The notes: generated by a model from the sequence alone, not told the origin. A DNA stretch of 64,000 nt from an uncultured Dehalococcoidales bacterium (GCA_964554375.1 CAZKOL010000003.1:7206-71205); one strand, 5' to 3'. Positions 1,999-18,320 are shown, counted from the stretch's first letter. Translations and numbers: made by a program.

Positions 1999-4146
1999 TT
2001 ACGCTGTTTTCTTTCCTGATAATCTGCGGAACAGGATCAGCGATCTGGATGGCACATGAATGAGTGAACCGCCTTTGATTCGGCTATCTTCTTTTGTTTG
2101 TGCGGACATATTTGTGTCCATTATTATTTCCCAGGTGGCTCCGCGCACGAAAGCAGGTAATTGAAACTCAACGTTTTCATGGCAGGAATTTAATATCATG
2201 AAGAAATCATCGTCAATGAGTGGACTGCCGTCTTCATTAAGCTCACGTGTGGCATGACCACTGAGACGTACACCGATACAACGTATCCATTCTGATTCCC
2301 AATCATTGTCAGTCATCTCCAGCCCATCAGGCCTCAGCCACATGACATCCTTGATTTCTGATCCATGTATAGCCCGCCCCTGGAAAAACTTCCTTCTGTG
2401 AAACACCGCGTGTGATTTCCGCAGCGCTATCAGTTTGCGGGTGAACTCGAGCAACGCCATTTTCCTCTCGTCCATCTCCCAATTCAACCAGCTTATCTCA
2501 TTATCCTGACAATAGGCATTATTATTGCCCTGCTGCGTCCTATAGAATTCATCCCCGGCGCTAAGCATTGGTATACCCTGTGACAGCATGAGTGTAGCAA
2601 TAAAATTGCGCTTCTGTCTTTCCCTCAATTCAATAATATCAGGGTCATCTGTTGGCCCTTCTTTTCCGCAATTCCATGAAAGGTTCAGATCGAGGCCGTC
2701 ACGGTTTTCTTCACCATTAGCTTCATTGTGCTTATCGTTGTAGCTGACCAGGTCTTCAAGAGTGAAGCCGTCATGGCAGGCCACGAAATTGATGCTGGCG
2801 TAGGGGCTCCTGCCATCCCATTCATATAGGTCGCTGCTTCCGGTCAGCCTATAGCCAAGTTCGGCCATTTGGCCGGCATCACCGCGCCAGAAGCGTCTAA
2901 GGGTATCGCGGTATTTGCCGTTCCATTCCGTCCAGAGCAAGGGGAAATTACCGACCTGGTAACCACCTTCCCCAATATCCCAAGGTTCAGCTATCAGCTT
3001 GACCTGCGAAATGACCGGGTCCTGGTGAATAATGTCAAAAAAGGCCGATAATTTATCCACATTTTTTGTTTCTCTGGCTAGAGCGGATGCCAGGTCGAAA
3101 CGGAAACCGTCAACGTGCATTTCACTGACCCAGTAGCGCAGGCTATCCATAACAAGTTGCAGGACCTGAGGATGATTGGCATTAAGAATGTTGCCGGTGC
3201 CGCTGTAGTCCATATAATAGCGTTTATTTTCTGGATATAACCGATAATAGGTGGGATTGTCAATGCCACGGAAGCTAAGTGTAGGACCGAGTTGATTACC
3301 CTCGGCTGTGTGATTGTACACCACGTCGAGTATGACTTCCAGTCCTGCGCGATGCAAGGCCTTGACCATTGCCTTGAACTCAGTCACCTGTTGGCCGGCA
3401 TCTCCCGTGCTGGAGTAAACTGCAGAAGGTGAAAAATAATTCAGGGTATTGTATCCCCAGTAGTTTGTCAGCCCTTTTTCCGCCAGGTGCTTGTCAGGTA
3501 CAAACGTGTGTATTGGCATCAACTCTATAGTCGTAACGCCAAGCTTCTTGAGATATTCAAGCACCGGGGGAGAGGCGAGAGCTGAGTATGTACCCCTGAG
3601 TTCAGGTGGGACCGACTGGTTCTTAATGCTAAAGCCTCTCACATGCAACTCGTAAATAATTGTCTCTGACCAGGGAATACGCGGCAATTGATCATTCTCC
3701 CAGGGGAACGAAGAATCTATCACAATGCATTTAGGCACATATCCCACATCATTTGTTGCTTCAAACGATAAGTCTGAATCAGGATGCCCGATGCTATACC
3801 CGAATATGGAAGCATCAGTATCTACAGATCCAGTCACCGCTTTGGAATATGGATCTATAAGCAGCTTGTTATGATTAAAACGCAGGCCGTTCTCCGGGTC
3901 ATAAGGTCCATAGACCCTGTATGCGTATGTCTGGCCGATGCATATTCCATGTACGCACGCATGCCAGATATGGGCAGTCACTTCTTGAAGTGATATTCGC
4001 TCGTTTTCTACAATGGCGGACGGGCTAGCGAAAAGGCACAATTCAATCTTTTCTGCATGTTCAGAGTAAATGGCAAAATTGACACCGTCACCCAACCATG
4101 TACTGCCCAGAGGGTACGGTTTTCCTAATGTAACGCTTCTGACCAT
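1999..4146 (-). CDS. glgX: glycogen debranching enzyme / isoamylase (GH13)
   Basis: 715 aa. N-terminus (LGSTWLGDGVNFAIYSEHAEKIELCLF) and catalytic blocks (ILDVVYNHT, GFRFDLAS, EPWD) match GlgX/TreX. Confidence 0.8.
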   Translation of the reverse strand: MVRSVTLGKPYPLGSTWLGDGVNFAIYSEHAEKIELCLFASPSAIVENERISLQEVTAHIWHACVHGICIGQTYAYRVYGPYDPENGLRFNHNKLLIDPYSKAVTGSVDTDASIFGYSIGHPDSDLSFEATNDVGYVPKCIVIDSSFPWENDQLPRIPWSETIIYELHVRGFSIKNQSVPPELRGTYSALASPPVLEYLKKLGVTTIELMPIHTFVPDKHLAEKGLTNYWGYNTLNYFSPSAVYSSTGDAGQQVTEFKAMVKALHRAGLEVILDVVYNHTAEGNQLGPTLSFRGIDNPTYYRLYPENKRYYMDYSGTGNILNANHPQVLQLVMDSLRYWVSEMHVDGFRFDLASALARETKNVDKLSAFFDIIHQDPVISQVKLIAEPWDIGEGGYQVGNFPLLWTEWNGKYRDTLRRFWRGDAGQMAELGYRLTGSSDLYEWDGRSPYASINFVACHDGFTLEDLVSYNDKHNEANGEENRDGLDLNLSWNCGKEGPTDDPDIIELRERQKRNFIATLMLSQGIPMLSAGDEFYRTQQGNNNAYCQDNEISWLNWEMDERKMALLEFTRKLIALRKSHAVFHRRKFFQGRAIHGSEIKDVMWLRPDGLEMTDNDWESEWIRCIGVRLSGHATRELNEDGSPLIDDDFFMILNSCHENVEFQLPAFVRGATWEIIMDTNMSAQTKEDSRIKGGSLIHVPSRSLILFRRLSGKKTA

Positions 4147-4271
4147 AAAATCTCAGTAGCAAATTATACAATAGTTAGCGGTAAAAGCCTATGATCCGCA
4201 TTGCATCATAATTATTGTTACCGAAAGTAGTATCGTTGCCTCAAAAGTAGTGTTACCCAAGGGAGGAACAC

Positions 4272-4690
4272 ATGACACGAGGCAGAATACTGGAATACTT
4301 GCAAGCTGATAGAGGAAGGTATCTAAGAGCAATCAAAGCGGAGAAGAAAAAAGTCCTGGATGAGTTTGTCAGGGTAACTGGTTATCATCGAAAGTCAGCT
4401 ATTAGGGCATTGAATAGGCCAGATCACGTTAAGCGAATTGGAAAACGTGGCCGTCCGAGATAATACCAATCTTCGGTTTCCAGCGAATTGAAGTATCTGT
4501 GGGAGATAACTGACCATTTGTGCAGTAAGCGTTTGCATCCCCTCTTACCTTAGATTTTGAATGTCTTAAAGAGGAGTGTCGGTCACATCATCAGTCCCGA
4601 AGTAGAGACTGGCCTGAGAGCGCTTAGCCCATCGACTGTAGATAGACTATTGAGGACCTGTCACCAGAAAGGGGCCTGATTTATGACGCA
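4272..4690 (+). pseudogene. decayed transposase (integrase-core type) N-terminal remnant
   Basis: The 63 aa ORF (VTGYHRKSAIRALNRP) continues in two shifted frames (SELKYLWEITDHLCSKRLHPLLP; ILNVLKRSVGHIISPEVETGLRALSPSTVDRLL) typical of IS transposase N-termini. No catalytic domain follows. Confidence 0.45.
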
Positions 4691-4954
4691 ATGATCACTC
4701 ACCGGGGAACACTTATTTTGACGCAACACGTGACCCACAAAACTAACATTATGGCTGGTACCAAAAAGGGGAGGTCCTCACACACTTGTACTACTGATTG
4801 GGAATCCCCTGCATTTGATCTAAATCATTATTTGCTGCAACGATGCGCCTTTTAACGGGATATCCAATTCCTTTGAGACTATCGAGCCTCACCCATCGGA
4901 AGTAGTATTGGTATTGTAGTCAGCAGTTTTGAAATACCGCGTATTTGAGATAAA

Positions 4955-6808
4955 TCAATCCGGGCTCGTGGAATCAGGCGCAAGAGGAATAGTAAAACTG
5001 AAAGTACTTCCTTTGTCCAATTCACTTTCCACCCATATTTTTCCCCCATGCATTTCAACCATGGACTTGGTAATGCTCAAACCCAGGCCGGTTCCTCCGG
5101 TTTTACGTGTTACAGAATTATCCACTCTGTAAAACTTGGTGAATAATTTAAACTGCTCGTCAGCCGAAATTCCAATGCCACTATCCACTATATCTACCTG
5201 TCCATACTTTTCAATACTATGTGCTCGTACTGTTATTGATCCACCTTTTGTAATGTATTTACAGGCATTACTGATCAGGTTGGTCAGAATCTGAGTAAGA
5301 CGAGCGTTGTCCGCAAGTACAATTATGCGATTCTCCGGCATATTAAGATGTACTTCTGTTTCTTTTTCTTCCAATTGTGTTTGAAGCGAGGCAATGACTG
5401 AGTACACAATTTCCTGAAGGGTAATAGCTTTTATCTTCAGATCAACTCGCCCTGCTTCAATCCGAGAAATATCCAGCAAGTCGCTGACCAATGTTATCAG
5501 CCTATCAGAACTACCACGAACGATTTCAAGATAGCTTCTCTGTTCTTGACTAATAGCACCTGCTTCGCCATCCAATATCATATCTACAAAGCCTTTAATT
5601 GAGGTTATTGGGGTGCGAAGCTCATGCGAAACCATTGAAACGAACTCTGTCTTCAGCTGGTCTACTCGATCAAGCTCAGTAATATCATGGATAGCAAAAA
5701 CACAACGCCCTGACTGTCCAAACTGCCCTTTGATTGCCTGAATATTAATTTCAAGCACCAAATCTCGAAGTCGTTTTTTCACAACACAACCTGGTTTATC
5801 AAGCTGCTGCACTAAGATATCAGTTAGCTCACGTTGAGAAAGTCCCAGATAAGCCTCGATGTTGTTACCAATCATTTCTTCTGCAGAATGACCGAAAATT
5901 TTCTCGGTGGTTGGATTCAGAGACAAAATATTATTTGCAGAATCCAAGACAATTATCCCCTCGGCCATACTTGAGAGAATTGCTTGAATCTCATCTCTTT
6001 GATTAGTTATTTCGCGCGAAAGAGCTTCAATTCTATCTGTATATACTTTCAACTTATCGTATTCTGGCTTCATCGAATATGGGCCGTAGTTTACGATAAT
6101 ACTATGGTTCAGTCTTCTGTTAGTGATTGTAGTAATACTAAGGTTTGGAGCTTTTATCTTAGTCATCCTTAAGCCTATTTCATCAATATAACCTTCCTCA
6201 CCAGTAACCAATCTTATATAATCACGTTTTTTTACCCTACCTGTAGCAGTAATCTCAAATCCGGCAAAAATATCACCAAAAGTGTCGCGGAGGGCCAGGA
6301 ACATAACTAAAATTAGAATCCCGATACCGAGTAAAACCGCATTTGTCGGCACCCCCCAGATACTTAGAAGAGTTAACGCCACTACCACAAGCAGTAGTAT
6401 TAAAGCCGTCCGCTTTACAGTGGCCAGAAAGGATGACGGAATCTCCAATTTTTCCGAATATATTTTTATAAGCTTGTCTGCCATTCTGATAAAAACCCAC
6501 ACAATAGAGAGTATCAGTATGGTCCATAAGGCTTTCTCAGAAATCGATATCCAATCTTCAGGGAGCGCCGATACCGCTAAAGCCAGCGCTATACCGATGA
6601 TAATAAACCAAAAAAAAGAGGGGGCTTTTACCGTGCTAATTATCGCTATATTGCCTTCCCATTGTGCCTTATCCGCCCACCGATCAAACATATTCCAGCA
6701 TAATCTCCATAATGAATATCCTACTAGTATTACTAACAAGAACAATCCTGCAGGGATTAATACTCCGGACCATTCCTGAATTATCTGGATTATCTTTGAT
6801 TCATCCAT
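4955..6808 (-). CDS. MscS-like mechanosensitive channel domain - PAS - histidine kinase fusion
   Basis: N-terminal TM helices plus an MscS beta-domain signature (GDIFAGFEI...[36 protein letters not shown]). These are followed by PAS ([34 protein letters not shown]), HisKA (SHELRTP) and HATPase_c (GGTGLGLSI) domains. Confidence 0.75.
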
Positions 6809-6832
6809 TATTGCAGCAATCCAAAGTGGTAA

Positions 6833-7534
6833 CTAAAAAGGGGCGTCTCCTGGGATAACCACCAGACCATTTTCAGTAATGCGCATTCTATTCATGCCAG
6901 TATCATGTTTCGTACCACGCAATTTTGTTATCTGAATAGAACGAGATACAGGAGTGGTGTGAAGAACAATGACACCCTGAGCTATAAACTCTTCCACCCC
7001 ATATCGGCTGATCATATTTCCTTCTTGCGGCATTTCCGTTATGAGAATTGTGGTACACCCCAATTCACGCAGCAAGGAGCTCAAGCGCATAATATCGCGG
7101 CGAAGGCATAGCACGTCGGAATAGGGCAGCCCCAACTGAGACAGAGAGTCAAATACGATACGTTTGGCATCTATTTCCATTACCTGTTTATGTATAATAT
7201 CTAACATAGTATCAATTTTAACTTCATTACCGGGTAACTCGAACGGAGTGGGAGATTGCACAAATCTTAATTTACCCGTCTTGTTTAAACCTTCAAGGTC
7301 CCAACCATATCGTCCCATGTCTTGAGTTACATCAGAGATCTCTTCTTGTAATGTTACAAAAACACCATTTTCAGCATATTTGGTAGCCCCATTATAGAGA
7401 TACTGAATACCAAATGTAGTCTTCGCGGAGCCAGCTGCACCTGTAAGCAGGATTGTGCGTCCTCGTGGGAAGCCACCCTCTATGAGATCGTCAAATCCGG
7501 TTATTCCTGTTGGGACCCTCTCTATATCGGTCAT
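6833..7534 (-). CDS. single-domain KaiC-like RecA-superfamily ATPase
   Basis: TGITGFDDLIEGGFPRGRTILLTGAAGSAKTTFGIQYL matches the KaiC/RadA-like N-lobe. Strong RBS AGGAAAGGGAG. The Walker A is deviant (GAAGSAKT). Confidence 0.7.
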   Translation of the reverse strand: MTDIERVPTGITGFDDLIEGGFPRGRTILLTGAAGSAKTTFGIQYLYNGATKYAENGVFVTLQEEISDVTQDMGRYGWDLEGLNKTGKLRFVQSPTPFELPGNEVKIDTMLDIIHKQVMEIDAKRIVFDSLSQLGLPYSDVLCLRRDIMRLSSLLRELGCTTILITEMPQEGNMISRYGVEEFIAQGVIVLHTTPVSRSIQITKLRGTKHDTGMNRMRITENGLVVIPGDAPF

Positions 7535-7563
7535 CTCCCTTTCCTCTGTTTATAGTTATTTTT

Positions 7564-7818
7564 TCAGGCAGAATAGCGGGCTAATCTCGGATCTTTAAAG
7601 CGAAGAGCAAACAGCCTTGGCTTATCCCCGAGGCTAAATATCAGCTCTTTTTGCTGTAGATTATAAAGCACGCTGTGTATCTTAGAAAACGGAATATCGC
7701 ACAGAGCGCTGATAACCTTGGCGGTAGATTCGCCCTCCTGATTTAAGAATCTGAAGACTTTTATTTCATCTTCACTTAAATTGAGCAACTCAGGGTATCT
7801 GTCAATAAAAGCACTCAT
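7564..7818 (-). CDS. small winged-helix DNA-binding protein
   Basis: 84 aa from the ATG that has a GGGAGGG RBS. HTH-like segment STAKVISALCDIPFSKIHSVLYNLQQKEL. Sits between the two KaiC-like genes. Confidence 0.4.
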   Translation of the reverse strand: MSAFIDRYPELLNLSEDEIKVFRFLNQEGESTAKVISALCDIPFSKIHSVLYNLQQKELIFSLGDKPRLFALRFKDPRLARYSA

Positions 7819-7870
7819 AGTGTACTGCCCTCCCATTCCTTTCGCTCACGATGGAAAATAAAATCATTCA

Positions 7871-8986
7871 TCATTCAAGCGTCACCCATTCCCTTGAAAA
7901 CTTCGACCATTTCATATTGGCAACTCGGGCCATATGCGCATCCTGTATCTTTAACTCAATGACCACATCCATCAGATATTTCACATTATTTATTTCACGT
8001 TCATTGATGGACCCTTCTTCCACAATAAAGATACTGGAGACACCTCCATAACTTGATGCAGTGCGTGCAAGCTGAGCCAGGAACCGCTGGACTAAGACCA
8101 GTTCGAAATTGATAAACAAGCTGCTAACTGAATCTATTATCCTCCTTCCCCCGGACTTATCGGTGATCGTCTGCCCTAATTCCAAGCCAGCATCTGAAAT
8201 GATGGCAGCCAGCTGATTGAGGTCCATCATGCCGCTGATAGCAAACTTTTCATCACTTTTCACTACGCCTCTATTCCAGCTGAAGCAGTCCACCATACGG
8301 AACATGCTCTCCTGCTCGTATTGAATGAGGCTGTTTTTACCGAGCATCTCACCCAATATTTCTCTAATCATGGCAGGATCATCATCCAATGTTATTACCA
8401 TACACCTCTCTCCACTTAACATGCCTGCCGTGACGAATTGACGTGCTAAAGTGCTCTTGCCTGAACCAGTATCCCCGATAAACAATATGTTACTTCCTGG
8501 AGGTATACCTCCATCAAGCGCTACATCAAGGTTGGGCACACCGGTGGACACTCGCGTGGCTGGAGGAGGTTTCTCAATAATTTTTGCTGTTACAGCGGCT
8601 GTCTCATCTATAAAAGGCATTGAACGATTAAGCAATGCTGTAATCCGCGCACGTAACACGGGCATACTGAAAGGTTTAGTCACAAAATCATCTACCCCGT
8701 CACGGAAAGCCTTTAAAGCATCCTGTTCTTGCTGAAGCGCTGTCAACATAATTATCGGCAGAGCGCGTGTTTCCGGCATATTGCGTAATTCCCGTGCAAG
8801 TTCATAGCCATCTTTATCAGGCATCATTGCATCGGTAATTATGATGTCGGGCTTTCTCATCTTTATCATCGACAGTGCATCTGCAGCATTTTCAAAAGCA
8901 GCTACTTCAAAACCAGCCTTCCTCAACCCTGTTTTTAAAAGGCGTAAGATTCCAGGATCATCATCGATAATTATTACATAGCTCAT
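7871..8986 (-). CDS. response-regulator receiver domain fused to KaiC-like ATPase
   Basis: REC domain (IIIDDDPGILRLL...DIIITDAMMPDKDGYEL) followed by a KaiC-like domain with Walker A GDTGSGKST. Start chosen at the ATG with a GGAG RBS; the ORF-track start is an upstream TTG. Confidence 0.7.
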   Translation of the reverse strand: MSYVIIIDDDPGILRLLKTGLRKAGFEVAAFENAADALSMIKMRKPDIIITDAMMPDKDGYELARELRNMPETRALPIIMLTALQQEQDALKAFRDGVDDFVTKPFSMPVLRARITALLNRSMPFIDETAAVTAKIIEKPPPATRVSTGVPNLDVALDGGIPPGSNILFIGDTGSGKSTLARQFVTAGMLSGERCMVITLDDDPAMIREILGEMLGKNSLIQYEQESMFRMVDCFSWNRGVVKSDEKFAISGMMDLNQLAAIISDAGLELGQTITDKSGGRRIIDSVSSLFINFELVLVQRFLAQLARTASSYGGVSSIFIVEEGSINEREINNVKYLMDVVIELKIQDAHMARVANMKWSKFSREWVTLE

Positions 8987-9094
8987 GCGGTTCTCCGCCA
9001 AACAAACCCGGCTAGATAATTAGCCTTGATCTTACTTATTATTCTATATCCATTTCCTTCATTGCAGACTACATGATAGTTCATAATAGATAAT

Positions 9095-10777
9095 TTATAT
9101 TACATTATTAGTTGCCTCGTTAGACAACGAAAGTAAGTACTTGAGAGGGATTTCAATCCAGGTTGGTCTATTATTCAGTTCATAGTTTAGCTCGTATATA
9201 GCCTTTTCAAGTTGGAAGGCAGTCAACGCTTTTTGTGTTGCCTCTCTGGATGCAGGCAGATATGAAGTCGAGCCGTTTAAAGAAACGCTAAAATAGCCTT
9301 TGAGGAAATCCTTACAAACCTGTCCCTCCCAAATTCTACCCCATTTTTCCATCTCATTAAATCTGTTCTTTTGTAGCAGATTAAAATCAAACAGCTTCGA
9401 GTACACCGCATAATTAAAGGAGCGAAGCATCCCGGCTACATCTTTCAGCGGGCTGTTTTTAGCCCTCCTTTCTTTTAGTGTCCTGGCCGGTTCGCCTTCA
9501 AAATCAATGATTATCCAGTCAGAGACAGTTTTTAATACCTGTCCCAGATGATAATCACCGTGATAGCGTATTTTATGTGTCCTTTCATCAGCAAGCACCA
9601 CCAGGTCTCCGGCTTTGTTCAAATACATCAAATCATTCGTAAGTACCTGCTTAATCTGTTCCTGGATATGAAGCGGGAACAAGTTACATTTATCATTTAA
9701 AATATGCAGGACCTCACTGGTATACGATTGGATACTCTTAATCCATATGCGCATGTCAGATTCCTCAATTAGTTCAGGAGAAAAGTCATCGATCCCACAA
9801 TTCGACGCCAAAGCGTTATGCAATTCTCCGGTAATTTCCCCAAGGTGGAAAGCATCCTGCAAGTACGTATTTGAAAACTGACGTACCACCAATTCTTTCA
9901 TTTCAGGGGTCGCCTTATCTTCAGCAGACAGCAGGGACTCATCTTTCAGAATAAAGTCATAGAAATTGTGCAGATGCCCTAATGTATATTTCCATCCATC
10001 ACCCTGACTTACAATAAAATTCTGAAGTGAGGCTATAGTAGATTTGAAATCGCCTTTTCCAGAATACTCAATATATCCAGCTACCAAAGGCATATTTTTA
10101 AAATTGGTCATTGTGGTTAAAAAGAGGGGGATTTCCAGGTCAGGATTAGTCCCATTTGCCAGTCGACGAAAGTTTTTCATGACGAAAGCTTCATCGTAAA
10201 TAACCGATGTATTGCTCTGTTCCACCCCCATAAACCGGACAGAATTAACAGCTAACGGAGACTGCGCATCTCTGGAAGCAGTTAGTAATGCAGTAGCAGT
10301 ACAATTGAAATGACCAGCCATGGAATCGATACGTTCTGAAACTTCGACCATCTGCAGATGCTTACGTAAAAATTCCTCGTCTTGAAGCGCATTAAGAACC
10401 AGAAGATTGCTGATGGGAGTCTGTAGCTCCAGTATTACATCTTCAGAGATAACAGGCAGCTTTCCTGTCGGGGAATCAGGCGATTGAATAACTACAGGAA
10501 AATAATAGATTTCAGAATCTTCATTGTCATATAGCAGCTCTATCAGCATCATCACATATACCGGCAAGTTACAACTTACGAGAGCGGCATCATAGAGATG
10601 AATGTGTTTGATTCCCTTCATCTTGCTGCCGAACCACCGCTGTCTTTTTATATAGTCTATCGGCACGGCTTCTATTATTGACGGAAGCAGCGCAACATAA
10701 TCACCAGGTTCAACAAGGTTCGCAGTCCTGTAAGTTGGAAACTCCATGTTTTTCATTTCTTTCCAAGCTGCCGTCAT
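9095..10777 (-). CDS. mak: maltokinase (maltose 1-phosphotransferase, Pep2/Mak family)
   Basis: Catalytic-loop HGDYHLGQVL and DFEGEP...SPLKDVAGMLRSFNYA motifs are diagnostic of Mak-type kinases. Start codon uncertain. Confidence 0.65.
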   Translation of the reverse strand: MTAAWKEMKNMEFPTYRTANLVEPGDYVALLPSIIEAVPIDYIKRQRWFGSKMKGIKHIHLYDAALVSCNLPVYVMMLIELLYDNEDSEIYYFPVVIQSPDSPTGKLPVISEDVILELQTPISNLLVLNALQDEEFLRKHLQMVEVSERIDSMAGHFNCTATALLTASRDAQSPLAVNSVRFMGVEQSNTSVIYDEAFVMKNFRRLANGTNPDLEIPLFLTTMTNFKNMPLVAGYIEYSGKGDFKSTIASLQNFIVSQGDGWKYTLGHLHNFYDFILKDESLLSAEDKATPEMKELVVRQFSNTYLQDAFHLGEITGELHNALASNCGIDDFSPELIEESDMRIWIKSIQSYTSEVLHILNDKCNLFPLHIQEQIKQVLTNDLMYLNKAGDLVVLADERTHKIRYHGDYHLGQVLKTVSDWIIIDFEGEPARTLKERRAKNSPLKDVAGMLRSFNYAVYSKLFDFNLLQKNRFNEMEKWGRIWEGQVCKDFLKGYFSVSLNGSTSYLPASREATQKALTAFQLEKAIYELNYELNNRPTWIEIPLKYLLSLSNEATNNVI

Positions 10778-10802
10778 TGCTTACAAACCCTGATTACAGC
10801 AG

Positions 10803-12041
10803 TTATTTGATAACGGACCTCATCATTGCCAATTCATCACGCACCAAACGGGGAGTCAAGAAATTTTTGCGGACGTGCTCTCGACCTAAATTACCTAATT
10901 CCCTGGCATAATCATTATCGGCAATCAGTCTAACTATTTTTTCGGCACATTCCCTGATATTGCTAACCAGGCAATAATCCAATTGGCCCGTTAGCTGTAG
11001 GGGTATACCTCCCACTCGACTACCTATAACCGGTTTGCCTTTCCAGAGTGTTTCAGACACTGCCAGACCAAAGCCTTCACGTAATGATTTCAGAATACCC
11101 ACACTGCACACCCTTTGAAATACATTAACCTCAATATCGCCGATGCCGTCAATATTTGTGTAAACGTGAATATCCTCGTCTTTAGATGCTTCAGCATCCA
11201 CAAGCCGGAGTGTTGAAAAAGTCTCCGGGTCATCCAGTGTTAGTGAACTTATAATAACCAGCTGCAAATCAGGGATCTCATTTTTAACCGCAAAGAAACA
11301 TTCTATGATGCCCATAGGGTCTTTCCACTTGTCCAGCCTTGAAACGTGAAGAAGAATCGGCCTTTGCGGATCAATACCCAGGCTGCTTACAAATTCAAGG
11401 CTTTGATCCAGAGGAACATCACGGTTTTTCAGGCTGAGCGGATCAATAGCCGGGGCAATAGTCTTTATCACCGGTAATTTCAAGTCAGCCGGTATGAATT
11501 CCTGCATAGTAAATATAGCGCCTTGATATTCCTCGATAAGCGGTTTTAAAAATGTCCAGGCTGCCTTATCCGGTTCAGAAGAATCTAAATGACAGCGCCA
11601 TATCCAGCGTGCCTTTTTAGAACTAATAAAGTGTGGCAAAGCAAGAAGATGATGATTGTGGAGAATAACCACGTCATAGTTGTTATCAGCGAAATCAGCC
11701 GCAATATCGCTATTATACTGGAGATACAATTGCTTCTCTTCATCACCTAACTCCTGAGGAGATCCCTGTAAGGCATTATGTATAACTTTGGCAATGTTTA
11801 AAAACTTATCATTGCTGCGTAGCGCATACCAATCTGCCTGAATACCCAGGTCCTGTTCGATTGGAACTGTAGCGCAAAGAATTTCTGGCACCCCACCCCC
11901 AAATGGGGTTGAAGTTATGTTACACACCCGCAAACCACGAAGGTCCCGGGCAATTTGATTAACCTCCTCCAATAACAAATCATCAATAATGCCCTGATAT
12001 TGGGTTAGTTTTTTCTCTGCGGTAATAACTTTCTCTAGCAC
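10803..12041 (-). CDS. treT: trehalose glycosyltransferring synthase (GT4)
   Basis: 412 aa. Blocks STPFGGGVPEIL, KVIHNALQG, WIWRCHLDSSEP and REGFGLAVSETLWKGKPVIGSRVGGI closely resemble archaeal/bacterial TreT as recalled from memory. Confidence 0.65.
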   Translation of the reverse strand: MLEKVITAEKKLTQYQGIIDDLLLEEVNQIARDLRGLRVCNITSTPFGGGVPEILCATVPIEQDLGIQADWYALRSNDKFLNIAKVIHNALQGSPQELGDEEKQLYLQYNSDIAADFADNNYDVVILHNHHLLALPHFISSKKARWIWRCHLDSSEPDKAAWTFLKPLIEEYQGAIFTMQEFIPADLKLPVIKTIAPAIDPLSLKNRDVPLDQSLEFVSSLGIDPQRPILLHVSRLDKWKDPMGIIECFFAVKNEIPDLQLVIISSLTLDDPETFSTLRLVDAEASKDEDIHVYTNIDGIGDIEVNVFQRVCSVGILKSLREGFGLAVSETLWKGKPVIGSRVGGIPLQLTGQLDYCLVSNIRECAEKIVRLIADNDYARELGNLGREHVRKNFLTPRLVRDELAMMRSVIK

Positions 12042-12102
12042 GTGCTATTCTCTCACCTGTAACAGCAATTTAAATTGACGTTAAAATAGAAATACTCCCT
12101 CT

Positions 12103-13779
12103 CTATTCAACGTTACAAGTTCTCTCCTGAAATACAGATTCGTTTTTCATTTCCAGACGGAACCATAGAAAACCATATGGGCTTAGAGTCAACAAGTAGG
12201 GCAATTCTCCGATACGGGGGAAGCGTACTTCACCTAACAATTCAACAGGGATTGCTCCCTTGTATCTCTTCAGGTCCAGCTCCACCGGCTGAGAAGAATT
12301 TGCCAGGTTTTGCACGACGAGAATATTATCATCCTGGTAACTGCGGATGTATGCTAATACACAACTGTTTCTTGGTTTTAGAAACTCTAAAGTGCCACGG
12401 CCGAAAGCCCGGTGCTTCTTACGCACCGCAATCAATCTCTTCATACTATTGAGTAATGAACTGGGTGTACGCATTTGTGCCTCAACGTTAATGGTCTGAT
12501 AACCGTAGACCGGATTACTAATAACAGGCAGGTAGAGTTGCTCCGGATCTATCTCAGAGAATCCCCCATTCCGATCGACACTCCATTGCATGGGAGTTCG
12601 TACACCATTACGATCACCCAGATAAATGTTGTCACCCATTCCAATCTCATCTCCATAGTAGATAATTGGACTACCGGGCATTGTAAGCAGAATGCTGTTC
12701 AACAGTTCCACCTTTCGCCGGTCATTGTCTACCAATGGCGCAAGCCTGCGGCGTATCCCCAGATTCAATCGCATTCTAGAATCAGCCGCGTACGTTTGCC
12801 ACATAAAAGCGCGCTGCAATTCCGTGACCATTTCAAGGGTCACTTCATCATGATTACGCAGAAAGAGCCCCCACTGGCTAGTATCGGGGATCTCAGGAGT
12901 GCGGCTTATTACATTGACAATAGGTTGACGATTTTCTCTTGCCAGCGCCATAAAAATATTGGGCATGAGGGGAAAATGAAATGCCATATGAAATTCATCA
13001 CCATCTCCAAAATACTGACGAACGTCCCCGGGCAATTGGTTTGCCTCGGCCAGCAGCAGTCTATCCTGGTAATTTTCGTCTATTTTGCGGCGCAGTTCCT
13101 TGAAATATACATGATTTTCAGGAAGATTTTCACAGTCAGTGCCTTCTTGCTCAAATAGGTATGGAACAGCATCGCAACGCAGCCCGTCCATGCCCTTATC
13201 AAGCCAGAAAAAAGCTACCTTCAACATTTCCTCCTGCACCTGAGGATTATTATAGTTAAGGTCCGGCTGGTGGCTAAAGAAACGATGCCAGTAATACTTA
13301 TTTAAACCGGTATCTAATGCCCAATTAGATTTCTCCGTGTCAAGAAAAATAATGCGCGCATCCTTGTATTTGTCCTGATTATCACTCCACACATAGTAAT
13401 CATGTTTAGGATTATCGGGAGATCTGCGAGCTTCCTGAAACCACCGGTGCTGGTCCGAGGTATGGTTAACAACAAGGTCGGCAATAACCCGTATCCCCAG
13501 TAGATGCGCCTTATTAAGGAACGCCTGGAAGTCTTCAATGCTCCCGTAGTCCGGATGGATGTCATTAAAATCGGAAATATCGTAGCCATCATCCTTCAAA
13601 GGAGAGGGATAAAATGGCAGCAGCCAGATGCAGTCGATCCCCAACTCCTTGAGATAGTCCAGCTTTTCCGTTAAACCCCGAAAATCTCCTTTGCCATCGT
13701 TATTGGCGTCATAAAAAGCGCGTACATGCACCTCATAGAAAATTGCGTCCTTATACCATAGCCTATCCGAATCTTGCAT
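12103..13779 (-). CDS. treS: trehalose synthase / maltose alpha-D-glucosyltransferase (GH13)
   Basis: [29 protein letters not shown] and [15 protein letters not shown] are hallmark TreS motifs; length 558 aa. Confidence 0.85.
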
Positions 13780-13908
13780 ACTATCCCTTATACACGTTAA
13801 TTTTCAGCGATTCCTGAATCTCTCTAACCATTGCTTCTCTATAATCCAGGACGTTTACCTCTCGCTACATAAATATATTTCGCCTGACTTATCCTCTCTA
13901 ATAGTATT

Positions 13909-15906
13909 CTACATAAAATAATCAAAATCTCTCTCCGTGTGAATACGCCGCCGGATAAGGAATATATGGGCAGGACAAACAAACGGATTCAGTTCGATAT
14001 AATTGCGCCGGCCACTCCACAGGAAGCGGGAGTCGCTTAAAAGATCGTGCATCTGATACGGTTGCTCTGAATCAAAATTCAATAACTCGGGAGAGAGTTC
14101 TACCCATCCAGAGTGAGTATGATGCGGATCGAGGTTCACTATTACCAGCAATGTGTTGGACAGGTCATCAGTTGATTTGCTATAACAAATCAACTGGTCA
14201 TTATCAACTTCATGGAAAAGCAGATTCAAGTTGCTCTGAAGAGCAGCATTATCTCTCCGGATCTTATTCATTAGCGAAATAAAGTCGCGCAGGCTATCCT
14301 GTAGCCCTGTATTCCAGTGTTTTATCTCATATTTCTCAGAGTTAAGGTATTCTTCACTGCCCTGCTCTTTGGGGCTATTTTCACAAAGCTCGAAAGCAGG
14401 GCCATAGATTCCGTAACTAGCGCCCAGAGTAGCTGCCAGTACCAACCGCGACATAAAGGCTGGCCGCCCGCCGGATTGAAGATATTCCGTCAGAATATCC
14501 GGGGTATTAGGCCACAGGTTCGGACGAAAATACTCTCGGACTTCCGTTTTAGTAAGCTCATTTAAATATTGTGTTAATTCCCACTTTGTATTGCGCCAGG
14601 TAAAATAAGTGTAAGATTGCGTAAAGCCCAATTTAGCGAGATTGTACATTACCTTGGGACGAGTAAATGCTTCAGCCAGGAAGATAACATCAGGATAAGC
14701 CTCTTTTATTTCGGAAATCAACCATTCCCAAAAGCCGAAGGGCTTGGTGTGAGGATTGTCAATTCTGAATATGTGAATTCCCTGTTCAATCCAATAGACC
14801 ACAATGCTTTTTAACTCATCCCACAATTCACTCCAGTGCTCGGTATTGAAATTTAGAGGATAAATATCCTGATATTTTTTTGGTGGATTCTCAGCAAATT
14901 GCACCTTTCCATCCGCGCGCAACAGAAACCATTCAGGGTGCTGGGTCACATAGGGATGATCAGGCGAGCATTGGAAAGCTATGTCCATGGCAATTTCAAT
15001 GCCATAATTATTGGACTTTTGCACTAGATTATGAAAGTCTTCGGTAGTGCCCAACTCAGGAAGGATTTCTTTATGCCCGCCTTCCTGCGAACCTATTGCC
15101 CAGGGAGTTCCAGGGTCATCAGGATTGGCTGTAACGGTATTATTTTTCCCTTTGCGATCGGTTTGGCCAATAGGATGTATAGGAGGAAAATAGAGAACGT
15201 CAAAGCCCATTTCCGCAATATAGGGAAGCCAGTCTTCACAATCCTTGAACGTGCCATGGCGCAATTCCTGCGTGGCAGCCGAGCGGGGAAACATTTCATA
15301 CCATGTGCTGAAGCGGGCCTTCTCCCTATCAACTGAGACCGCCAATTCCTTAGGATAAGTGACGGCAAATCTTCTATCAGATAACTTGTCCATCGCTTCA
15401 GCGACATTTTCAGCAAGTATCAACTTCATCTTGTCTTTCTGCGATACCTGCTCCGATTGAAGCGCCTTTAGCCACTTGCCTATCAACCTTTTATCACCGT
15501 TAGCAGCTCTCAGGGATGCTTCTTCAATAAGCCGGGTACCTGCTATTAAATGAATTGCAGTATCTTCTTCACCTGCATTAAGCCTTTTCTCAAAGTTATC
15601 GCGCCAGGATTTAAAGCTATCAACCCAGGCTGTAACCGTGTAAAAGTAGTTTCCCAGCTCCGTTACTATAAATGACGCCCTCCACCGGTCATTGATAACA
15701 CGTTCCATGGGTATCTCACGCCACCGAGAATCAAGCGCTTGCCTATACGATAGTAAAGCAGTGAGTACATCGTGGCCATCAGCATAAATATCCGCCTCTA
15801 CTACCACCGTCTCACCTATAATTCGTTTAACTGGGAAACGTCCATCATTTATCGCAGGCTTCACAAGGTCTATAACTACTCGTGATCTACTATCTGTCTT
15901 TTTCAC
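13909..15906 (-). CDS. glgE: alpha-1,4-glucan:maltose-1-phosphate maltosyltransferase
   Basis: 665 aa. The N-terminus VVIDLVKPAINDGRFPVKRIIGE and GH13-like core match GlgE. Confidence 0.8.
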   Translation of the reverse strand: MKKTDSRSRVVIDLVKPAINDGRFPVKRIIGETVVVEADIYADGHDVLTALLSYRQALDSRWREIPMERVINDRWRASFIVTELGNYFYTVTAWVDSFKSWRDNFEKRLNAGEEDTAIHLIAGTRLIEEASLRAANGDKRLIGKWLKALQSEQVSQKDKMKLILAENVAEAMDKLSDRRFAVTYPKELAVSVDREKARFSTWYEMFPRSAATQELRHGTFKDCEDWLPYIAEMGFDVLYFPPIHPIGQTDRKGKNNTVTANPDDPGTPWAIGSQEGGHKEILPELGTTEDFHNLVQKSNNYGIEIAMDIAFQCSPDHPYVTQHPEWFLLRADGKVQFAENPPKKYQDIYPLNFNTEHWSELWDELKSIVVYWIEQGIHIFRIDNPHTKPFGFWEWLISEIKEAYPDVIFLAEAFTRPKVMYNLAKLGFTQSYTYFTWRNTKWELTQYLNELTKTEVREYFRPNLWPNTPDILTEYLQSGGRPAFMSRLVLAATLGASYGIYGPAFELCENSPKEQGSEEYLNSEKYEIKHWNTGLQDSLRDFISLMNKIRRDNAALQSNLNLLFHEVDNDQLICYSKSTDDLSNTLLVIVNLDPHHTHSGWVELSPELLNFDSEQPYQMHDLLSDSRFLWSGRRNYIELNPFVCPAHIFLIRRRIHTERDFDYFM

Positions 15907-15982
15907 TATAACTCACCTCGCTTTCACAGACAGCCAATGATAAGGCATTGCCATCAGTTTACTATAAACGCTTGCCATAAGA

Positions 15983-16012
15983 ACAATTTAGCATTGCGTT
16001 ATTTGACTAGCT
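15983..16012 (+). promoter_or_regulatory. candidate sigma70-type promoter for malQ-glgB
   Basis: TTGACT, a 17-18 nt spacer, then TAAGAT, in the 270-bp divergent intergenic region between glgE and malQ. Confidence 0.25.
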
Positions 16013-16178
16013 GCTCGGTGAAACGGTAAGATAGCAAATCAGACAGTAACCTTACCACCATTTGTTACCGCGTTCAAAATAATGCAACGTAAGAAGCATA
16101 ACCACGAGAGATATAAGTCCAATAAACAATTGGCCTGACAATAAAACTTCATCTGCCCTGGGGGAGTATATACATTTT

Positions 16179-18320
16179 ATGGACGCTCCGGAGAAGCAAG
16201 TGAATAGCTCCATTAAGTCGCTTTATGAACTTGCTCACCTGTACGGTATCCAGGTTGCCTATAATGACGTCGAACACCACCGCAGACAAGCTTCCGTCGA
16301 AACACTGTTAGCAACACTGCGATCTTTGGAGGCTCCTGTTGTGTCACTTGATGACATTCCTTCGGTTATCAGCGAAAAGAGGCAAGCGCTCTGGCAAAAC
16401 TACATTGAGCCTGTGCTGGTAGCCTGGGACGGGAACATGTCCCCTATCAACATACGTTTACCACAGAGGATGTCTGACAAACCTTTTAAAATTACTATCA
16501 CCCTGGAAAATGGAGACCGAGCCTGCTGGCATTGCCAGATTAACGATGTTTTACCCAGGATAAAGAAAGTAGACGTGAATGGAACCACGTATGTTATCAA
16601 GCTTTTTAAAATACCTGTCAAATTACCCTCAGGATATCACCAGCTCACGATAGAATTAGATAACATGGTAGTGCAGGCATTTATCATTTCAGCACCCCGG
16701 AAGACTTACTCTGATACAAACATGCTGAACAGTAAATGCTGGGGAGCATTCGTTCCACTTTATGCTCTGCATACCAGGGAGAGTTGGGGTGGAGGCAACT
16801 TCTCAGACATGGAGACCATGACGACGTGGGTCAGCGAAATGGGCGGCAAAGTTGTTGCTACCCTGCCACTGCTTTCTACCTTTTTCGAGAATACTTGCGA
16901 CGTCGGCCCCTATTCTCCCGCCAGCCGCCTATTCTGGAATGAAGTCTACATAGACATAAAAAAAATTGCAGAACTGGGAAGCTGCGATGCGGCAACAATG
17001 ATACTTGCGTCTGATACTTTCTGTAATAACCTGGACCTCATGCGGAAAGCATCCCATGTAGACTATCGCCTGCAAATTGATGTGAAGCGCCGAATACTGG
17101 AGCAACTGTCACGATATTGTTTTACGGAAAGCCCAGCCCAGAGGGAAAAATGTCTGAACTTCGTGATGATGAATCCAATGGTAGAAGACTATGCTAAATT
17201 CCGTGCCACCTGTGAAAAACGCCAGGAGCGCTGGCATTCATGGCCTTCCCCTCAAAAAGATGGAATGCTTTACCAGGAAGACTATAACGAAGAGATAAAA
17301 CAATATCATATATATGTACAATGGTTAGCCAGCGAACAACTCAAGGCAATCTCAAAAACAGCCAGTGAAAAAGATGTGAAATTATACTTTGACCTGCCGC
17401 TGGGAGTACATCCCGATAGCTATGATGTCTGGCGTGAAAAAGATGCCTTTTTGCCTGGAGTTTCGGCAGGAGCGCCTCCTGATACTTTCTTCACGAGGGG
17501 ACAGCAATGGGGTCTTACTCCTTTGAGCCCTGAGGGTATCAGAAAGCAGGGGTACAGATATTATATAAATTGCCTGCGAAACATTCTTAAATACTCGAGT
17601 ATCCTGAGGATCGACCACGTAATGGCTTATCACCGCCTTTACGTCATTCCAAATGGTTTTGATGCCCGTAATGGCGTTTATATGCGTTACCATCCATCGG
17701 AGTTCTACGCTATCGCGAGCCTTGAATCACATCGCAACAAGGCTATACTCCTGGGCGAGGACCTGGGCACAGTACCAGCAGAGGTCAGAAGAGCAATGGA
17801 GCAACATGATTTATACCGGCACTATGTCATTCAGTATGAAATCAGCCCCACTGAAGGAAAGCCATTCACTGCTGTACCGGAAAAAGTAGTAGCAAGTATT
17901 AATACCCATGATATGGCTACCTTCGCAGGCTTCTGGCAGGACGATGATATAAAACAGCGCTTTGAGCTTGGATTACTGGACAGCGATGGTGCAAAACAGG
18001 AACGCAGTGAACGCCAGCATATCAGGAAGATAGTCATTAAATTCCTCAAGCAGGAAAAGTTAATTAACTCATCGCAACCCGGCATCAGGGATATACTCAA
18101 AGGTATATTAAGCTTTCTCAGTTCAAGCCCGGCACGGATGGTTCTTATCAATGTTGAGGATCTCTGGTTGGAGATGAAACCTCAGAATATACCTGGCACG
18201 GTGGAGGAGTATCGCAATTATTGTAAAAAGTTATATTATCCATTTGAGGAATTCTCAAAGTCGCATGAAGTGTTGGAAATATTAAGTGAAGTCAATCAAA
18301 GACGCAGAGGAGAGAAATGA
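16179..18320 (+). CDS. malQ: 4-alpha-glucanotransferase (amylomaltase, GH77) with N-terminal extension
   Basis: The GH77 core (DLPLGVHPDSYDVW, QQWGLTPLSP, LRIDHVMAYHRLYVIP) is preceded by an N-domain of about 170 aa. Confidence 0.8.
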   Translation: MDAPEKQVNSSIKSLYELAHLYGIQVAYNDVEHHRRQASVETLLATLRSLEAPVVSLDDIPSVISEKRQALWQNYIEPVLVAWDGNMSPINIRLPQRMSDKPFKITITLENGDRACWHCQINDVLPRIKKVDVNGTTYVIKLFKIPVKLPSGYHQLTIELDNMVVQAFIISAPRKTYSDTNMLNSKCWGAFVPLYALHTRESWGGGNFSDMETMTTWVSEMGGKVVATLPLLSTFFENTCDVGPYSPASRLFWNEVYIDIKKIAELGSCDAATMILASDTFCNNLDLMRKASHVDYRLQIDVKRRILEQLSRYCFTESPAQREKCLNFVMMNPMVEDYAKFRATCEKRQERWHSWPSPQKDGMLYQEDYNEEIKQYHIYVQWLASEQLKAISKTASEKDVKLYFDLPLGVHPDSYDVWREKDAFLPGVSAGAPPDTFFTRGQQWGLTPLSPEGIRKQGYRYYINCLRNILKYSSILRIDHVMAYHRLYVIPNGFDARNGVYMRYHPSEFYAIASLESHRNKAILLGEDLGTVPAEVRRAMEQHDLYRHYVIQYEISPTEGKPFTAVPEKVVASINTHDMATFAGFWQDDDIKQRFELGLLDSDGAKQERSERQHIRKIVIKFLKQEKLINSSQPGIRDILKGILSFLSSSPARMVLINVEDLWLEMKPQNIPGTVEEYRNYCKKLYYPFEEFSKSHEVLEILSEVNQRRRGEK

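Follow-up and report, generated by a model that had tools for sequence, protein, structure and literature searches.

Which process is served by four signalling genes that lie among the trehalose and alpha-glucan genes of an uncultured Dehalococcoidales bacterium? The stretch of DNA analysed, here called the window, comprises 64,000 nucleotides, and the four genes occupy positions 4955-8986 on its minus strand, between mak and glgX. From comparative sequence analysis we read them, with moderate confidence, as one conserved operon encoding a tension (turgor or osmotic)-responsive two-component pathway that would adjust trehalose and alpha-glucan metabolism. The genes and their nearest neighbours are listed in the direction in which the module is read.

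10803-12041, minus strand: TreT, trehalose glycosyl-transferring synthase (Pfam TreT_GT1, E 7e-43; NCBIfam TreT, E 8e-101)
9095-10777, minus strand: maltokinase Mak/Pep2 (NCBIfam TreS_Cterm 'putative maltokinase', E 5e-103)
8987-9094, minus strand: AT-rich spacer of 108 bp between mak and the REC-KaiC gene
7871-8986, minus strand: REC-KaiC-like response regulator, 371 aa, ATG at 8986 (longest ORF 7871-9001)
7564-7818, minus strand: TrmB-type winged helix-turn-helix (wHTH) protein, 84 aa, ATG at 7818 (ORF 7564-7836)
6833-7534, minus strand: KaiCs, single-domain KaiC-like ATPase (class S), 233 aa, CI-like
4955-6808, minus strand: MscS-like/PAS/HisKA/HATPase sensor histidine kinase, 617 aa
4272-4463, plus strand: remnant (N-terminal part) of an ISNCY-family transposase, within the 808 bp that separate the kinase gene from glgX

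A first-pass annotation had placed four co-oriented genes with these domains at this site, and a Pfam search of the four proteins matched the expected domains above the curated thresholds. Its account of the flanks was likewise correct: Mak, TreT, TreS and GlgE are encoded upstream, GlgX and TreZ downstream, and MalQ and GlgB divergently. The gene directly upstream of the module is that of Mak, part of the TreS-Mak-GlgE alpha-glucan route. The locus is more than a chance arrangement: 35 blocks of public assemblies contain it in identical form, and diverged relatives keep the order of the four genes. No second set of histidine kinase, receiver or KaiC-like genes occurs elsewhere in the 64 kb window.

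Gene starts, spacers and the transposase remnant

Public gene calls and the N-termini of orthologues agree on ATG 8986, with the ribosome-binding site GGAG, as the likely start of the REC-KaiC gene, and on ATG 7818, preceded by GGGAGG, as that of the wHTH gene. The longest REC-KaiC ORF begins at TTG 9001 and gives 376 aa; residue numbers below refer to this form. Because of these two starts the intergenic gaps measure 108 bp between mak and the REC-KaiC gene and then 52, 29 and 24 bp, in place of the 24-35 bp originally proposed. A strong ribosome-binding site had also been assigned to each downstream gene; the kinase start at 6808 is without a clear Shine-Dalgarno sequence, although kinase residues 1-40 are kept in orthologues.

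The spacer at 8987-9094 contains a -10-like TATAGAAT and, as a terminator-like hit, the hairpin GGCTAATTATCTAGCC with a T-run (9025-9010); such patterns might tentatively mark a promoter or an attenuator that serves the module. Similar ATAGAAT/ATAGAGT elements precede the orthologous gene in L006 and L008, the genes upstream being different in L008. Promoter and terminator scans gave background level only, which counts against the main reading.

The transposase scar is real. ORF 4272-4463 shares 46-48% identity (E about 1e-5) with the N-termini of ISNCY-annotated transposases from plasmid records (tblastn) and is followed by broken frames; an NCBIfam search with this ORF gave no match. The remnant adjoins the four-gene system and is not a part of it. 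That the module was acquired as a unit, as the scar had been taken to suggest, finds no support in synteny or composition. In the relative L006 (69% identity) the order GlgE-TreS-TreT-Mak-module-GlgX is unchanged and the position of the remnant is taken by a glucanotransferase-like gene, and the GC content of the module (0.41-0.45) is that of mak and treT; a GC content below that of the rest of the window is seen only for the sugar locus as a whole (1-20 kb). IS elements are also present near the locus.

The four proteins

Residues 1-245 of the kinase comprise five hydrophobic segments with an MscS-type pore-lining TM3 followed by the beta-domain, and a coiled linker comes next (hydropathy and motifs). 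A profile of this N-terminus run against the PDB retrieved Escherichia coli MscS (residues 31-232) and YnaI (47-259) at E about 5e-19. The C-terminal part contains PAS (273-378), HisKA with H395 and HATPase_c; Pfam matches are MS_channel_2nd (E 5e-8), PAS, HisKA (E 7e-21) and HATPase_c (E 6e-31). No element of the kinase core is missing: it has the H-box SHELRTP (H395), the N-box NLISNACK (510) and the G1 and G2 boxes DSGIG (542) and GTGLGL (572). PAS-HisKA-HATPase follows the beta-domain directly, and no Pfam match to the C-terminal alpha/beta vestibule domain MS_channel_3rd was obtained in the kinase; TM3a is rich in bulky residues, as against the Gly/Ala-rich AFGVGGLAVALALRD of the full-length relative P0127. 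With its vestibule domain gone and little of the Gly/Ala packing of the pore left, the MscS-derived domain resembles a sensor more than a valve. The same architecture is found in L006, L007, L008 and one further 50%-identity cluster, P0138.

The closest relatives of the sensor domain are proteins joining an MscS-like part to DUF5752, at least seven of them among the top 150 representatives. One such gene precedes treT by 13 bp within a glycogen cluster (L084), another lies between otsA-otsB and treT (L089). This sensor-domain subfamily is tied to trehalose operons independently of the module, a point absent from the first-pass annotation, which had considered an osmo-responsive role along with time-keeping; it strengthens the case for an osmotic or turgor input. 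Two points count against the main reading here: an MscS scaffold is heptameric and a kinase dimeric, with no obvious fit in symmetry, and the kinase could instead pair with a NarL-type REC-GerE regulator. The gene of this regulator lies about 6 kb past TreZ, outside the window.

The response regulator consists of a REC domain (9-120), a linker (130-146) and a KaiC-like 'class F' domain (151-376), with Pfam scores of 106.9 bits (E 8e-31) for Response_reg and 87.4 bits (E 1e-24) for KaiC/PF06745, whose curated cut-off is 26.6 bits. The residues expected of a receiver (acidic pocket, phospho-acceptor Asp, T/S, Lys) are all in place: across 26 homologues D13, D14, D57 and K109 do not vary, and T/S87 is conserved. 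The fused domain retains Walker A (GDTGSGKS) and Walker B (RRIIDS), but LDDDP (DD) stands in place of the catalytic EE, and MKW replaces the Arg-finger motif K-[LM]-R-G-T. ATP binding is probable in this domain, which is probably divergent in catalysis. An AF2 model of the protein (pLDDT 82) matches KaiC at E 1e-13, and its output domain superposes on the KaiC-like PH0284 (2dr3) with a TM score of 0.77.

KaiCs matches PF06745 with 213.8 bits and, like the fused domain, belongs to the KaiC family with its RecA-like fold; it shares 40% identity with the CI domain of KaiC and matches archaeal PH0186 at E 1e-53. Its motifs are Walker A GAAGSAKT, VTLQEE, Walker B RIVFDS and KLRGTKH, the first two being non-canonical. 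All 13 orthologues encoded downstream of REC-KaiC genes carry GxAGSGKT, whereas the window protein has GAAGSAKT (G to A). It also has Q at the first catalytic-Glu position, a further point against the main reading; the P-loop may be degenerate and the ATPase weak.

The 84-aa protein has the N-terminal winged helix-turn-helix of the TrmB family (Pfam TrmB, PF01978, 34.4 bits, cut-off 25.6; orthologues match too). It is a DNA-binding domain only, from which the sugar-binding C-terminal effector domain of TrmB is absent. In L006-L010 its gene always directly precedes that of the KaiCs orthologue, and the adjacency of the two is strict in six genomes.

Linkage to trehalose genes and the proposed output

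The order REC-KaiC, wHTH, KaiCs, MscS/PAS kinase recurs in three Dehalococcoidales MAGs (L006, L007, L008; 62-69% identity), which supports the proposal that two-component and KaiC-like parts form a single signalling unit. L009 and L010 have the order REC-KaiC, TreT, wHTH, KaiCs; all relatives are uncultured MAGs. The physical tie to trehalose and alpha-glucan genes, likewise proposed at the outset, is conserved despite rearrangement and so not accidental: such genes lie within 10 kb of the module in 7/7 Dehalococcoidales-type loci, window included, in at least three arrangements, and the linkage outlasts at least three rearrangements among relatives at 47-69% identity. None of the 70 or so loci of other phyla shows it. 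Among the enzyme genes, treT has the tightest link to the module in relatives: in L009, L010 and L081 it comes straight after the REC-KaiC gene, and in L006 and L008 it is near the module. It is the likeliest controlled target.

Beyond the Dehalococcoidales-type loci the recurring unit is a widespread KaiC-like partner gene, KaiC-up, abutting the REC-KaiC gene (62/76 loci, several phyla), again outside any trehalose context. Two observations on this gene count against the main reading. KaiC-up is missing from the window, and L081 has KaiC-up, REC-KaiC and TreT with no wHTH, KaiCs or kinase gene nearby; because L081 keeps REC-KaiC and TreT, the wHTH protein is not required for the treT link.

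Under the preferred reading the kinase would detect bilayer tension or cell volume through its MscS-derived, YnaI-like domain of five transmembrane segments and pass the signal via PAS to the kinase core, which would autophosphorylate at H395. The phosphoryl group would move to D57 of the REC-KaiC-like protein and alter the assembly state of its KaiC-like output domain, as in NtrC-like REC-ATPase regulators. The altered assembly would shift the interaction of this protein with KaiCs, on this reading the catalytically canonical partner, and the KaiC-like complex might then sequester, release or remodel the sensor-less TrmB-type wHTH protein, which would set transcription of neighbouring sugar genes, treT foremost. 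The flow suggested by the first-pass annotation, in which the kinase acts on REC-KaiC and the standalone KaiC-like ATPase is the partner, is plausible at most; the kinase and receiver genes share an operon position in the window and in L006-L008, and in most relatives the conserved partner is another KaiC-like gene, absent from this region. Transcription as the output is pointed to by BTAD(SARP)-REC-KaiC-like fusions (P0068, P0071), which link the KaiC-like output domain to transcription activators, and by NtrC-type regulator genes that follow the REC-KaiC gene in other loci. The TrmB operator TACTN3AGTA did not occur in the locus in a pattern search of the 64 kb, where its single occurrence (37283) is at chance level, and orthologous upstream regions showed no common palindrome or 8-mer on comparison; this negative operator search counts against the main reading.

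The same input could also act after translation, with the KaiC-like proteins binding TreT, Mak or GlgE or serving as autokinases or scaffolds while the wHTH protein autoregulates the operon only. We consider this possible though unlikely: it would suit the L081 arrangement, the three loci with treT straight after the REC-KaiC gene, the negative operator search and the control of trehalose synthesis in Thermoproteus tenax by protein-complex formation (PMC3634074), but the strict wHTH/KaiCs adjacency and the fusions and neighbours that indicate transcription speak against it, as does the want of an evident enzyme-binding domain. If the module were instead a general stress or energy-state hub, its proximity to sugar genes, by clade synteny or island-level co-transfer, would have no regulatory meaning. 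In other phyla the KaiC-up/REC-KaiC pair indeed sits amid the housekeeping genes purA, hisG, hisD and gidB with no conserved effector, and the low GC of the sugar locus and the IS elements close by fit such a transfer. Persistence of the linkage through the rearrangements, including treT right after the REC-KaiC gene, and the independent association of the sensor subfamily with trehalose operons make this improbable.

A working solute-release valve, reported on or gated by the kinase, would make efflux of trehalose or other solutes on hypo-osmotic shock primary and signalling secondary. The loss of the vestibule domain, the bulky pore-lining helix and the complete kinase core render this very improbable, even with a clearly MscS-like TM3 and beta-domain, a truncated MSC in a trehalose operon as precedent (PMC3634074) and the MscS-like/DUF5752 relatives within such operons. 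Least credible of all is a KaiC-based timer or hourglass for carbon storage, similar to the way in which KaiC controls glycogen in cyanobacteria. The resemblance of KaiCs to the CI domain and the change of phosphorylation with culture age in Pseudomonas KaiC homologues (bioRxiv 10.1101/2022.01.26.477890) would favour it; against it, each of the two proteins has just one KaiC-like domain and lacks CII with its S/T phosphosites, the fused domain is without the Glu pair and Arg finger, and the P-loop of the window KaiCs looks degenerate. No KaiB-like ORF was found in the 64 kb window (phmmer, with a KaiB sequence as query), and no KaiA or KaiB gene occurs in any related module. The time-keeping part of the original proposal is dropped on these grounds.

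Comparison with known systems

In the cyanobacterial KaiC-SasA/CikA-RpaA system KaiC is double-domain, depends on KaiA and KaiB, and stands upstream of the kinase. The window has no detected KaiA/B genes and no CII phosphosites. Here one polypeptide contains both the receiver and a KaiC-like domain, so that the kinase presumably acts on the KaiC-like protein, unlike in cyanobacteria. Regulators of the NtrC type (REC-AAA+) are analogous in that phosphorylation governs how an ATPase ring assembles, and GvpD of the haloarchaeal GvpD/GvpE pair in that a P-loop protein of the KaiC family controls a transcription factor. The ATPase of the window is RecA-like, in contrast to the AAA+ superfamily of NtrC, and has no sigma-54 interaction motif; matches to Pfam GvpD_P-loop are weak, and no GvpE-like activator is present.

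The view of archaeal KaiC-like proteins as 'signal transduction hubs' reportedly stems from Makarova et al. 2017, as relayed by Galperin et al. 2018 (PMC5847659). In that account, archaeal single-domain KaiC-like ATPases, some of them inactivated (iKaiC), are joined to REC or other signalling domains and proposed as signalling hubs, and a KaiC-REC fusion of Methanosarcinaceae is reported only from six methanogen genera. The REC-KaiC family described here differs in being bacterial, spread over several phyla and accompanied by a conserved abutting KaiC-like partner gene.

Pseudomonas putida and P. protegens have a KaiC-family ATPase whose gene accompanies those of a receiver protein and of a histidine kinase with a PAS domain; this KaiC adds to osmotic and oxidative stress resistance and binds the PAS domain of the kinase (bioRxiv 10.1101/2022.01.26.477890). 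The Pseudomonas KaiC is double-domain with phosphosites, its receiver is a separate single-domain protein and no metabolic genes are linked, whereas the window has two single-domain KaiC-like units (one receiver-fused and probably divergent in catalysis), a wHTH protein and an MscS-derived sensor.

Two further systems serve as precedents for the main reading. The msc-gt-tpsp operon of T. tenax, in which the gene of a truncated MscS-like membrane protein is co-transcribed with trehalose synthesis genes, has been read as part of an osmotic stress response, its stand-alone MSC of 197 aa being a proposed efflux valve (PMC3634074). It encodes no kinase, receiver or KaiC-like protein and uses the TPS/TPP pathway, as opposed to TreT and TreS-Mak-GlgE in the window. 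In Thermococcales the gene of a TrmB-family winged-helix regulator lies beside treT (PMC4158304); its C-terminal effector domain senses maltose and trehalose, in contrast to the 84-aa DNA-binding domain of the window, whose locus is free of the TrmB operator.

Organization and origin of the locus

The trehalose and alpha-glucan locus is transcribed from the minus strand in the order GlgE, TreS, TreT, Mak, four signalling genes, a gap, GlgX and TreZ, with MalQ and GlgB lying divergently on the plus strand.

15906-13909, minus strand: GlgE (Pfam and NCBIfam)
13779-12103, minus strand: TreS (Pfam and NCBIfam)
12041-10803, minus strand: TreT (Pfam and NCBIfam)
10777-9095, minus strand: Mak (Pfam and NCBIfam)
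8986-4955, minus strand: four signalling genes, namely a receiver fused to a KaiC-like output domain (REC-KaiC), an 84-aa winged-helix protein (wHTH), a single-domain KaiC-like ATPase (KaiCs) and an MscS-like/PAS histidine kinase (Pfam)
4954-4147: gap of 808 bp
4146-1999, minus strand: GlgX (Pfam and NCBIfam)
1964-111, minus strand: TreZ (Pfam and NCBIfam)

Pfam assigned to the four signalling genes the domains that the first-pass annotation had described. REC-KaiC probably starts at ATG 8986 and wHTH at ATG 7818; both starts, like that of KaiCs at 7534, follow a good Shine-Dalgarno sequence. None precedes the kinase start at 6808, although the first 40 residues are kept in orthologues. The strong ribosome-binding site first ascribed to every downstream gene is present for wHTH and KaiCs but not for the kinase. 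With these starts the gaps from mak onward come to 108, 52, 29 and 24 bp, instead of the 24-35 bp first given. Public assemblies of metagenomes and genomes contain the identical locus in 35 blocks. No further kinase, receiver, KaiC-like gene or orthologue of KaiC-up (the KaiC-like gene that abuts REC-KaiC in most related loci) was found within the 64-kb window.

Promoter and terminator counts equaled the shuffled expectation, and the scan therefore gives no information on operon structure. The locus contains no TrmB site (TACTN3AGTA), and no palindrome (arms of 5-6 nt, spacer 0-10) or 8-mer is common to 15 upstream regions from seven genomes. The GlgE-MalQ intergenic region, aligned with that of the close relative L006, shows scattered identity only, repeats in 4100-16300 are short and chance-like, and Rfam matched no RNA family in the window. 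A hairpin, GGCTAATTATCTAGCC followed by GGGTTTGTTT, lies at 9010-9025 between mak and the REC-KaiC start codon; it is not kept in the three closest relatives (L006-L008) and might act as a weak terminator or attenuator or serve as a protein-binding dyad.

The transposase scar reported beside the module is real: the gap holds the N-terminal fragment of an ISNCY transposase (tblastn against plasmids), which had no match in NCBIfam. Acquisition of the module as a unit through this element is not supported: in L006 the synteny is unchanged, with a glucanotransferase-like gene at the position that the remnant occupies in the window (no remnant of that gene was found in the window's gap), and the GC content of the module equals that of mak and treT. 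As the whole sugar locus (1-20 kb) is low in GC (0.42-0.48 versus 0.50-0.58 in 20001-64000), any transfer concerns the whole island, and the trehalose/alpha-glucan region may have arrived by horizontal transfer as a sugar island. An IS240-type DDE transposase ORF is located at 28631-29695 and an IS3-type element left of the window. The product of the minus-strand ORF 21482-22156 begins with a hydrophobic segment, contains repeats of QQPVV and has an acidic and aromatic YDYDDHDWDDYYDYD tail.

KaiC-like proteins and the MscS-derived kinase

In Pfam, REC-KaiC matches Response_reg (E 8e-31) and PF06745 (E 1e-24), KaiCs matches PF06745 with its single KaiC-like domain (E 3e-63), and wHTH is a TrmB-type winged-helix protein (E 2e-8). 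The functional residues of the receiver are complete (D13, D14, D57, T87 and K109, numbered on the 376-aa ORF form) and invariant or conserved across 26 homologues. An AlphaFold model of REC-KaiC (26 homologues, pLDDT 82) consists of the receiver, a disordered linker (130-146) and a RecA-like domain; superposition of the latter on the KaiC-like PH0284 gave a TM of 0.77. KaiCs shares 40% identity with the CI domain of KaiC and is near the archaeal single-domain PH0186. Only five close matches to wHTH were found, with no fusion proteins among the homologues. When 150 KaiC-like sequences of related loci were aligned, they fell into three classes.

Motifs of the three KaiC classes
Class S (KaiCs): Walker A GxAGSGKT; catalytic EE site [E/Q]E; Walker B hhhhDS; Arg-finger K[LM]RGTxH
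Class U (KaiC-up): Walker A GEPGTGKT; catalytic EE site DE; Walker B hhhhDP; Arg-finger KMRGT
Class F (fused domain): Walker A GxxGxGKS; catalytic EE site DD (D206 and D207 invariant); Walker B RRhhDS; Arg-finger MKW

Judged by its motif set, class F appears catalytically divergent though the nucleotide-binding motifs are retained. In this it recalls the archaeal domains termed 'iKaiC' (PMC5847659). The KaiCs of this organism has the Walker A motif GAAGSAKT (window 7421-7444, residues 31-38), as against GxAGSGKT in 13/13 orthologues; since many assemblies carry exactly this protein, a sequencing error is not the cause. Its first catalytic-Glu position is Q, as in three other class-S sequences, and ATP binding or hydrolysis may be weakened. 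Fusions of a BTAD (SARP-type transcription activator domain) to REC-KaiC-like proteins also exist (P0068 and P0071, 561-631 aa), which by analogy would tie the class F output domain to transcription activators.

The kinase comprises an MscS beta-domain, PAS, HisKA and HATPase_c (Pfam), and its core has H395 together with the N, G1 and G2 boxes. Five hydrophobic segments precede a genuine TM3 and beta-domain of MscS type; a profile of the N-terminus matches the structures of MscS and YnaI from E. coli (E ~5e-19), and PAS and kinase core stand where the C-terminal vestibule domain of the channel would be. Most of the Gly/Ala pattern of the pore-lining helix is gone; a full-length relative retains it. 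Close relatives of the sensor domain are few (11 representatives at E < 1e-30 in collections of 5.8 and 1.8 billion proteins) and are mostly fusions of an MscS-like part to DUF5752; others are fused to a LuxR-type (GerE) HTH (P0124, P0125), and only one other 50%-identity cluster (P0138) has the MscS-PAS-kinase architecture. Among the texts searched, none was found to describe a fusion of MscS to a histidine kinase, which does not prove its absence.

Neighborhoods of related loci

In the protein collection, REC-KaiC-like proteins make up about 70 full-length clusters. Bacteria and archaea, at one genome per species, contain 188 matching stretches, which belong to Dehalococcoidales, many Marinamargulisbacteria, Abditibacteriaceae, Binatia, groundwater 'Deltaproteobacteria', Brocadiales and others. 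The proteins of the window were used to scan the six-frame ORFs of 78 loci. In 62 of 76 loci from several phyla (L010-L083) a class-U gene abuts or overlaps the REC-KaiC start (e.g., L010 9289-11137 and L012 9269-11104), an arrangement that suggests translational coupling and a two-protein complex. This pair is the real conserved core of the REC-KaiC family; the class-U gene is missing from the window and from its three closest relatives, L006-L008 (62-69% identity). A class-S gene lies downstream in 13 loci, both classes occur in nine and neither in ten, and a histidine kinase is found within 10 kb in 25. The order REC-KaiC, wHTH, KaiCs, MscS/PAS kinase recurs in L006, L007 and L008.

The proposed tie of the module to sugar genes was upheld: trehalose or alpha-glucan genes adjoin it in 7/7 Dehalococcoidales-type loci, in differing arrangements.

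Arrangements in Dehalococcoidales-type loci
L006: synteny as in the window
L007: module, MalQ-like, GlgE-like, GlgE, TreS
L008: module, then MalQ-like (opposite strand), TreS, TreT, Mak
L009, L010: KaiC-up, REC-KaiC, TreT, wHTH, KaiCs (L010 further on: hybrid kinase, receiver, GT2 glycosyltransferase)
L081: KaiC-up, REC-KaiC, TreT, GT2

A linkage that outlasts rearrangement argues for function. The GT2-family (cellulose-synthase-like) glycosyltransferase following the module/treT cluster in two of these relatives (L010 17051-18667, L081 12570-13616) may be another glucan-related target. No trehalose or glucan genes were found in the scanned loci from other phyla, and outside Dehalococcoidales there is no conserved effector; the flanks are housekeeping genes or other regulators (including NtrC-type, REC-PAS-kinase, and kinase plus REC) in lineage-specific synteny. 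Six loci of Marinamargulisbacteria have, immediately after REC-KaiC, a gene for a GlgC/GlmU-like sugar-nucleotidyltransferase (NTP_transferase plus hexapeptide; e.g., L040 11109-12488), which may be another carbohydrate link outside Chloroflexota.

The relatives of the sensor domain provide a second, independent line for the trehalose link. Both MscS-like plus DUF5752 fusions that could be placed on contigs fall within trehalose operons, one in a GH57/GlgA/GlgC-like cluster, where it precedes treT by 13 bp (L084 8001-9380), and one between otsA-otsB and treT (L089 4663-6036). Just left of the window (L087), a stand-alone DUF5752 gene (14993-15367) lies with a GlgC-like nucleotidyltransferase beside TreY. 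DUF5752, for which the literature search found no paper, appears to be an uncharacterized trehalose-associated domain. An orphan NarL-type response regulator (REC-GerE; L087 17632-18402), about 6 kb past TreZ and outside the window, could be a second partner of the kinase.

Proposed pathway and comparison with known systems

Most likely, judging from sequence and analogy, the module is a tension- or turgor-sensing two-component pathway acting on trehalose/glucan genes. The receiver of REC-KaiC would control assembly or partner choice of the KaiC-like ATPases, these in turn would control the sensor-less TrmB-type wHTH, and wHTH would set transcription of treT and the glucan genes; we infer each step from uncultured organisms. 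Several findings weigh against this mechanism: L081 has the treT link without wHTH, the usual partner gene KaiC-up is missing from the window, the P-loop of KaiCs is atypical, and no operator was found at the locus. The time-keeping role raised in the first-pass annotation is not supported, whether as clock or as hourglass: there is no CII domain, related modules contain neither KaiA nor KaiB, the fused domain appears catalytically divergent, and phmmer with a KaiB query found no KaiB-like ORF within the 64-kb window. An anti-phage defense function was dismissed, as PADLOC gave marginal partial matches only. Were the module an ordinary stress two-component system, the gain would be modest, namely an annotation for a recurrent MAG gene cluster.

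The tension- or turgor-sensing reading can be extended in two parts. REC-KaiC would represent an undescribed, phylum-spanning class of bacterial response regulators, whose catalytically divergent output would work in a hetero-oligomer with a canonical single-domain KaiC-like ATPase (KaiC-up in most lineages, here KaiCs), and in Dehalococcoidia it would be a hub driven by a histidine kinase with a recycled MscS channel as sensor, leading directly from membrane tension to trehalose/alpha-glucan synthesis. We advance the two parts together only tentatively, as possible but somewhat doubtful; if both are true, the module would provide the first sensor kinase derived from a mechanosensitive channel and the first KaiC-like hub in bacteria whose metabolic target can be identified. 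To our knowledge, an output is known for only a minority of KaiC homologues outside cyanobacteria. For the hub considered here, probable targets (treT and the TreS-Mak-GlgE route) and a probable signal (membrane tension) are both at hand, and it is therefore directly testable. In MscS itself the tension response of the sensor domain is already understood, and the kinase is a concrete candidate for how a histidine kinase can sense mechanical or osmotic stress. The occurrence of the REC-KaiC-like gene with its abutting partner in Margulisbacteria, Binatia, Abditibacteria, Brocadiales and others points to a sizeable uncharacterized regulator class.

The texts searched contain no description of the combination, which consists of a sensor kinase derived from MscS, a bacterial class of REC-KaiC-like regulators whose KaiC-like partner gene abuts theirs, and a conserved link to treT. 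Taken singly, two-component systems, signalling hubs of KaiC-like type and the placing of MscS genes next to those for trehalose have already been described or proposed. [quoted passage not shown]
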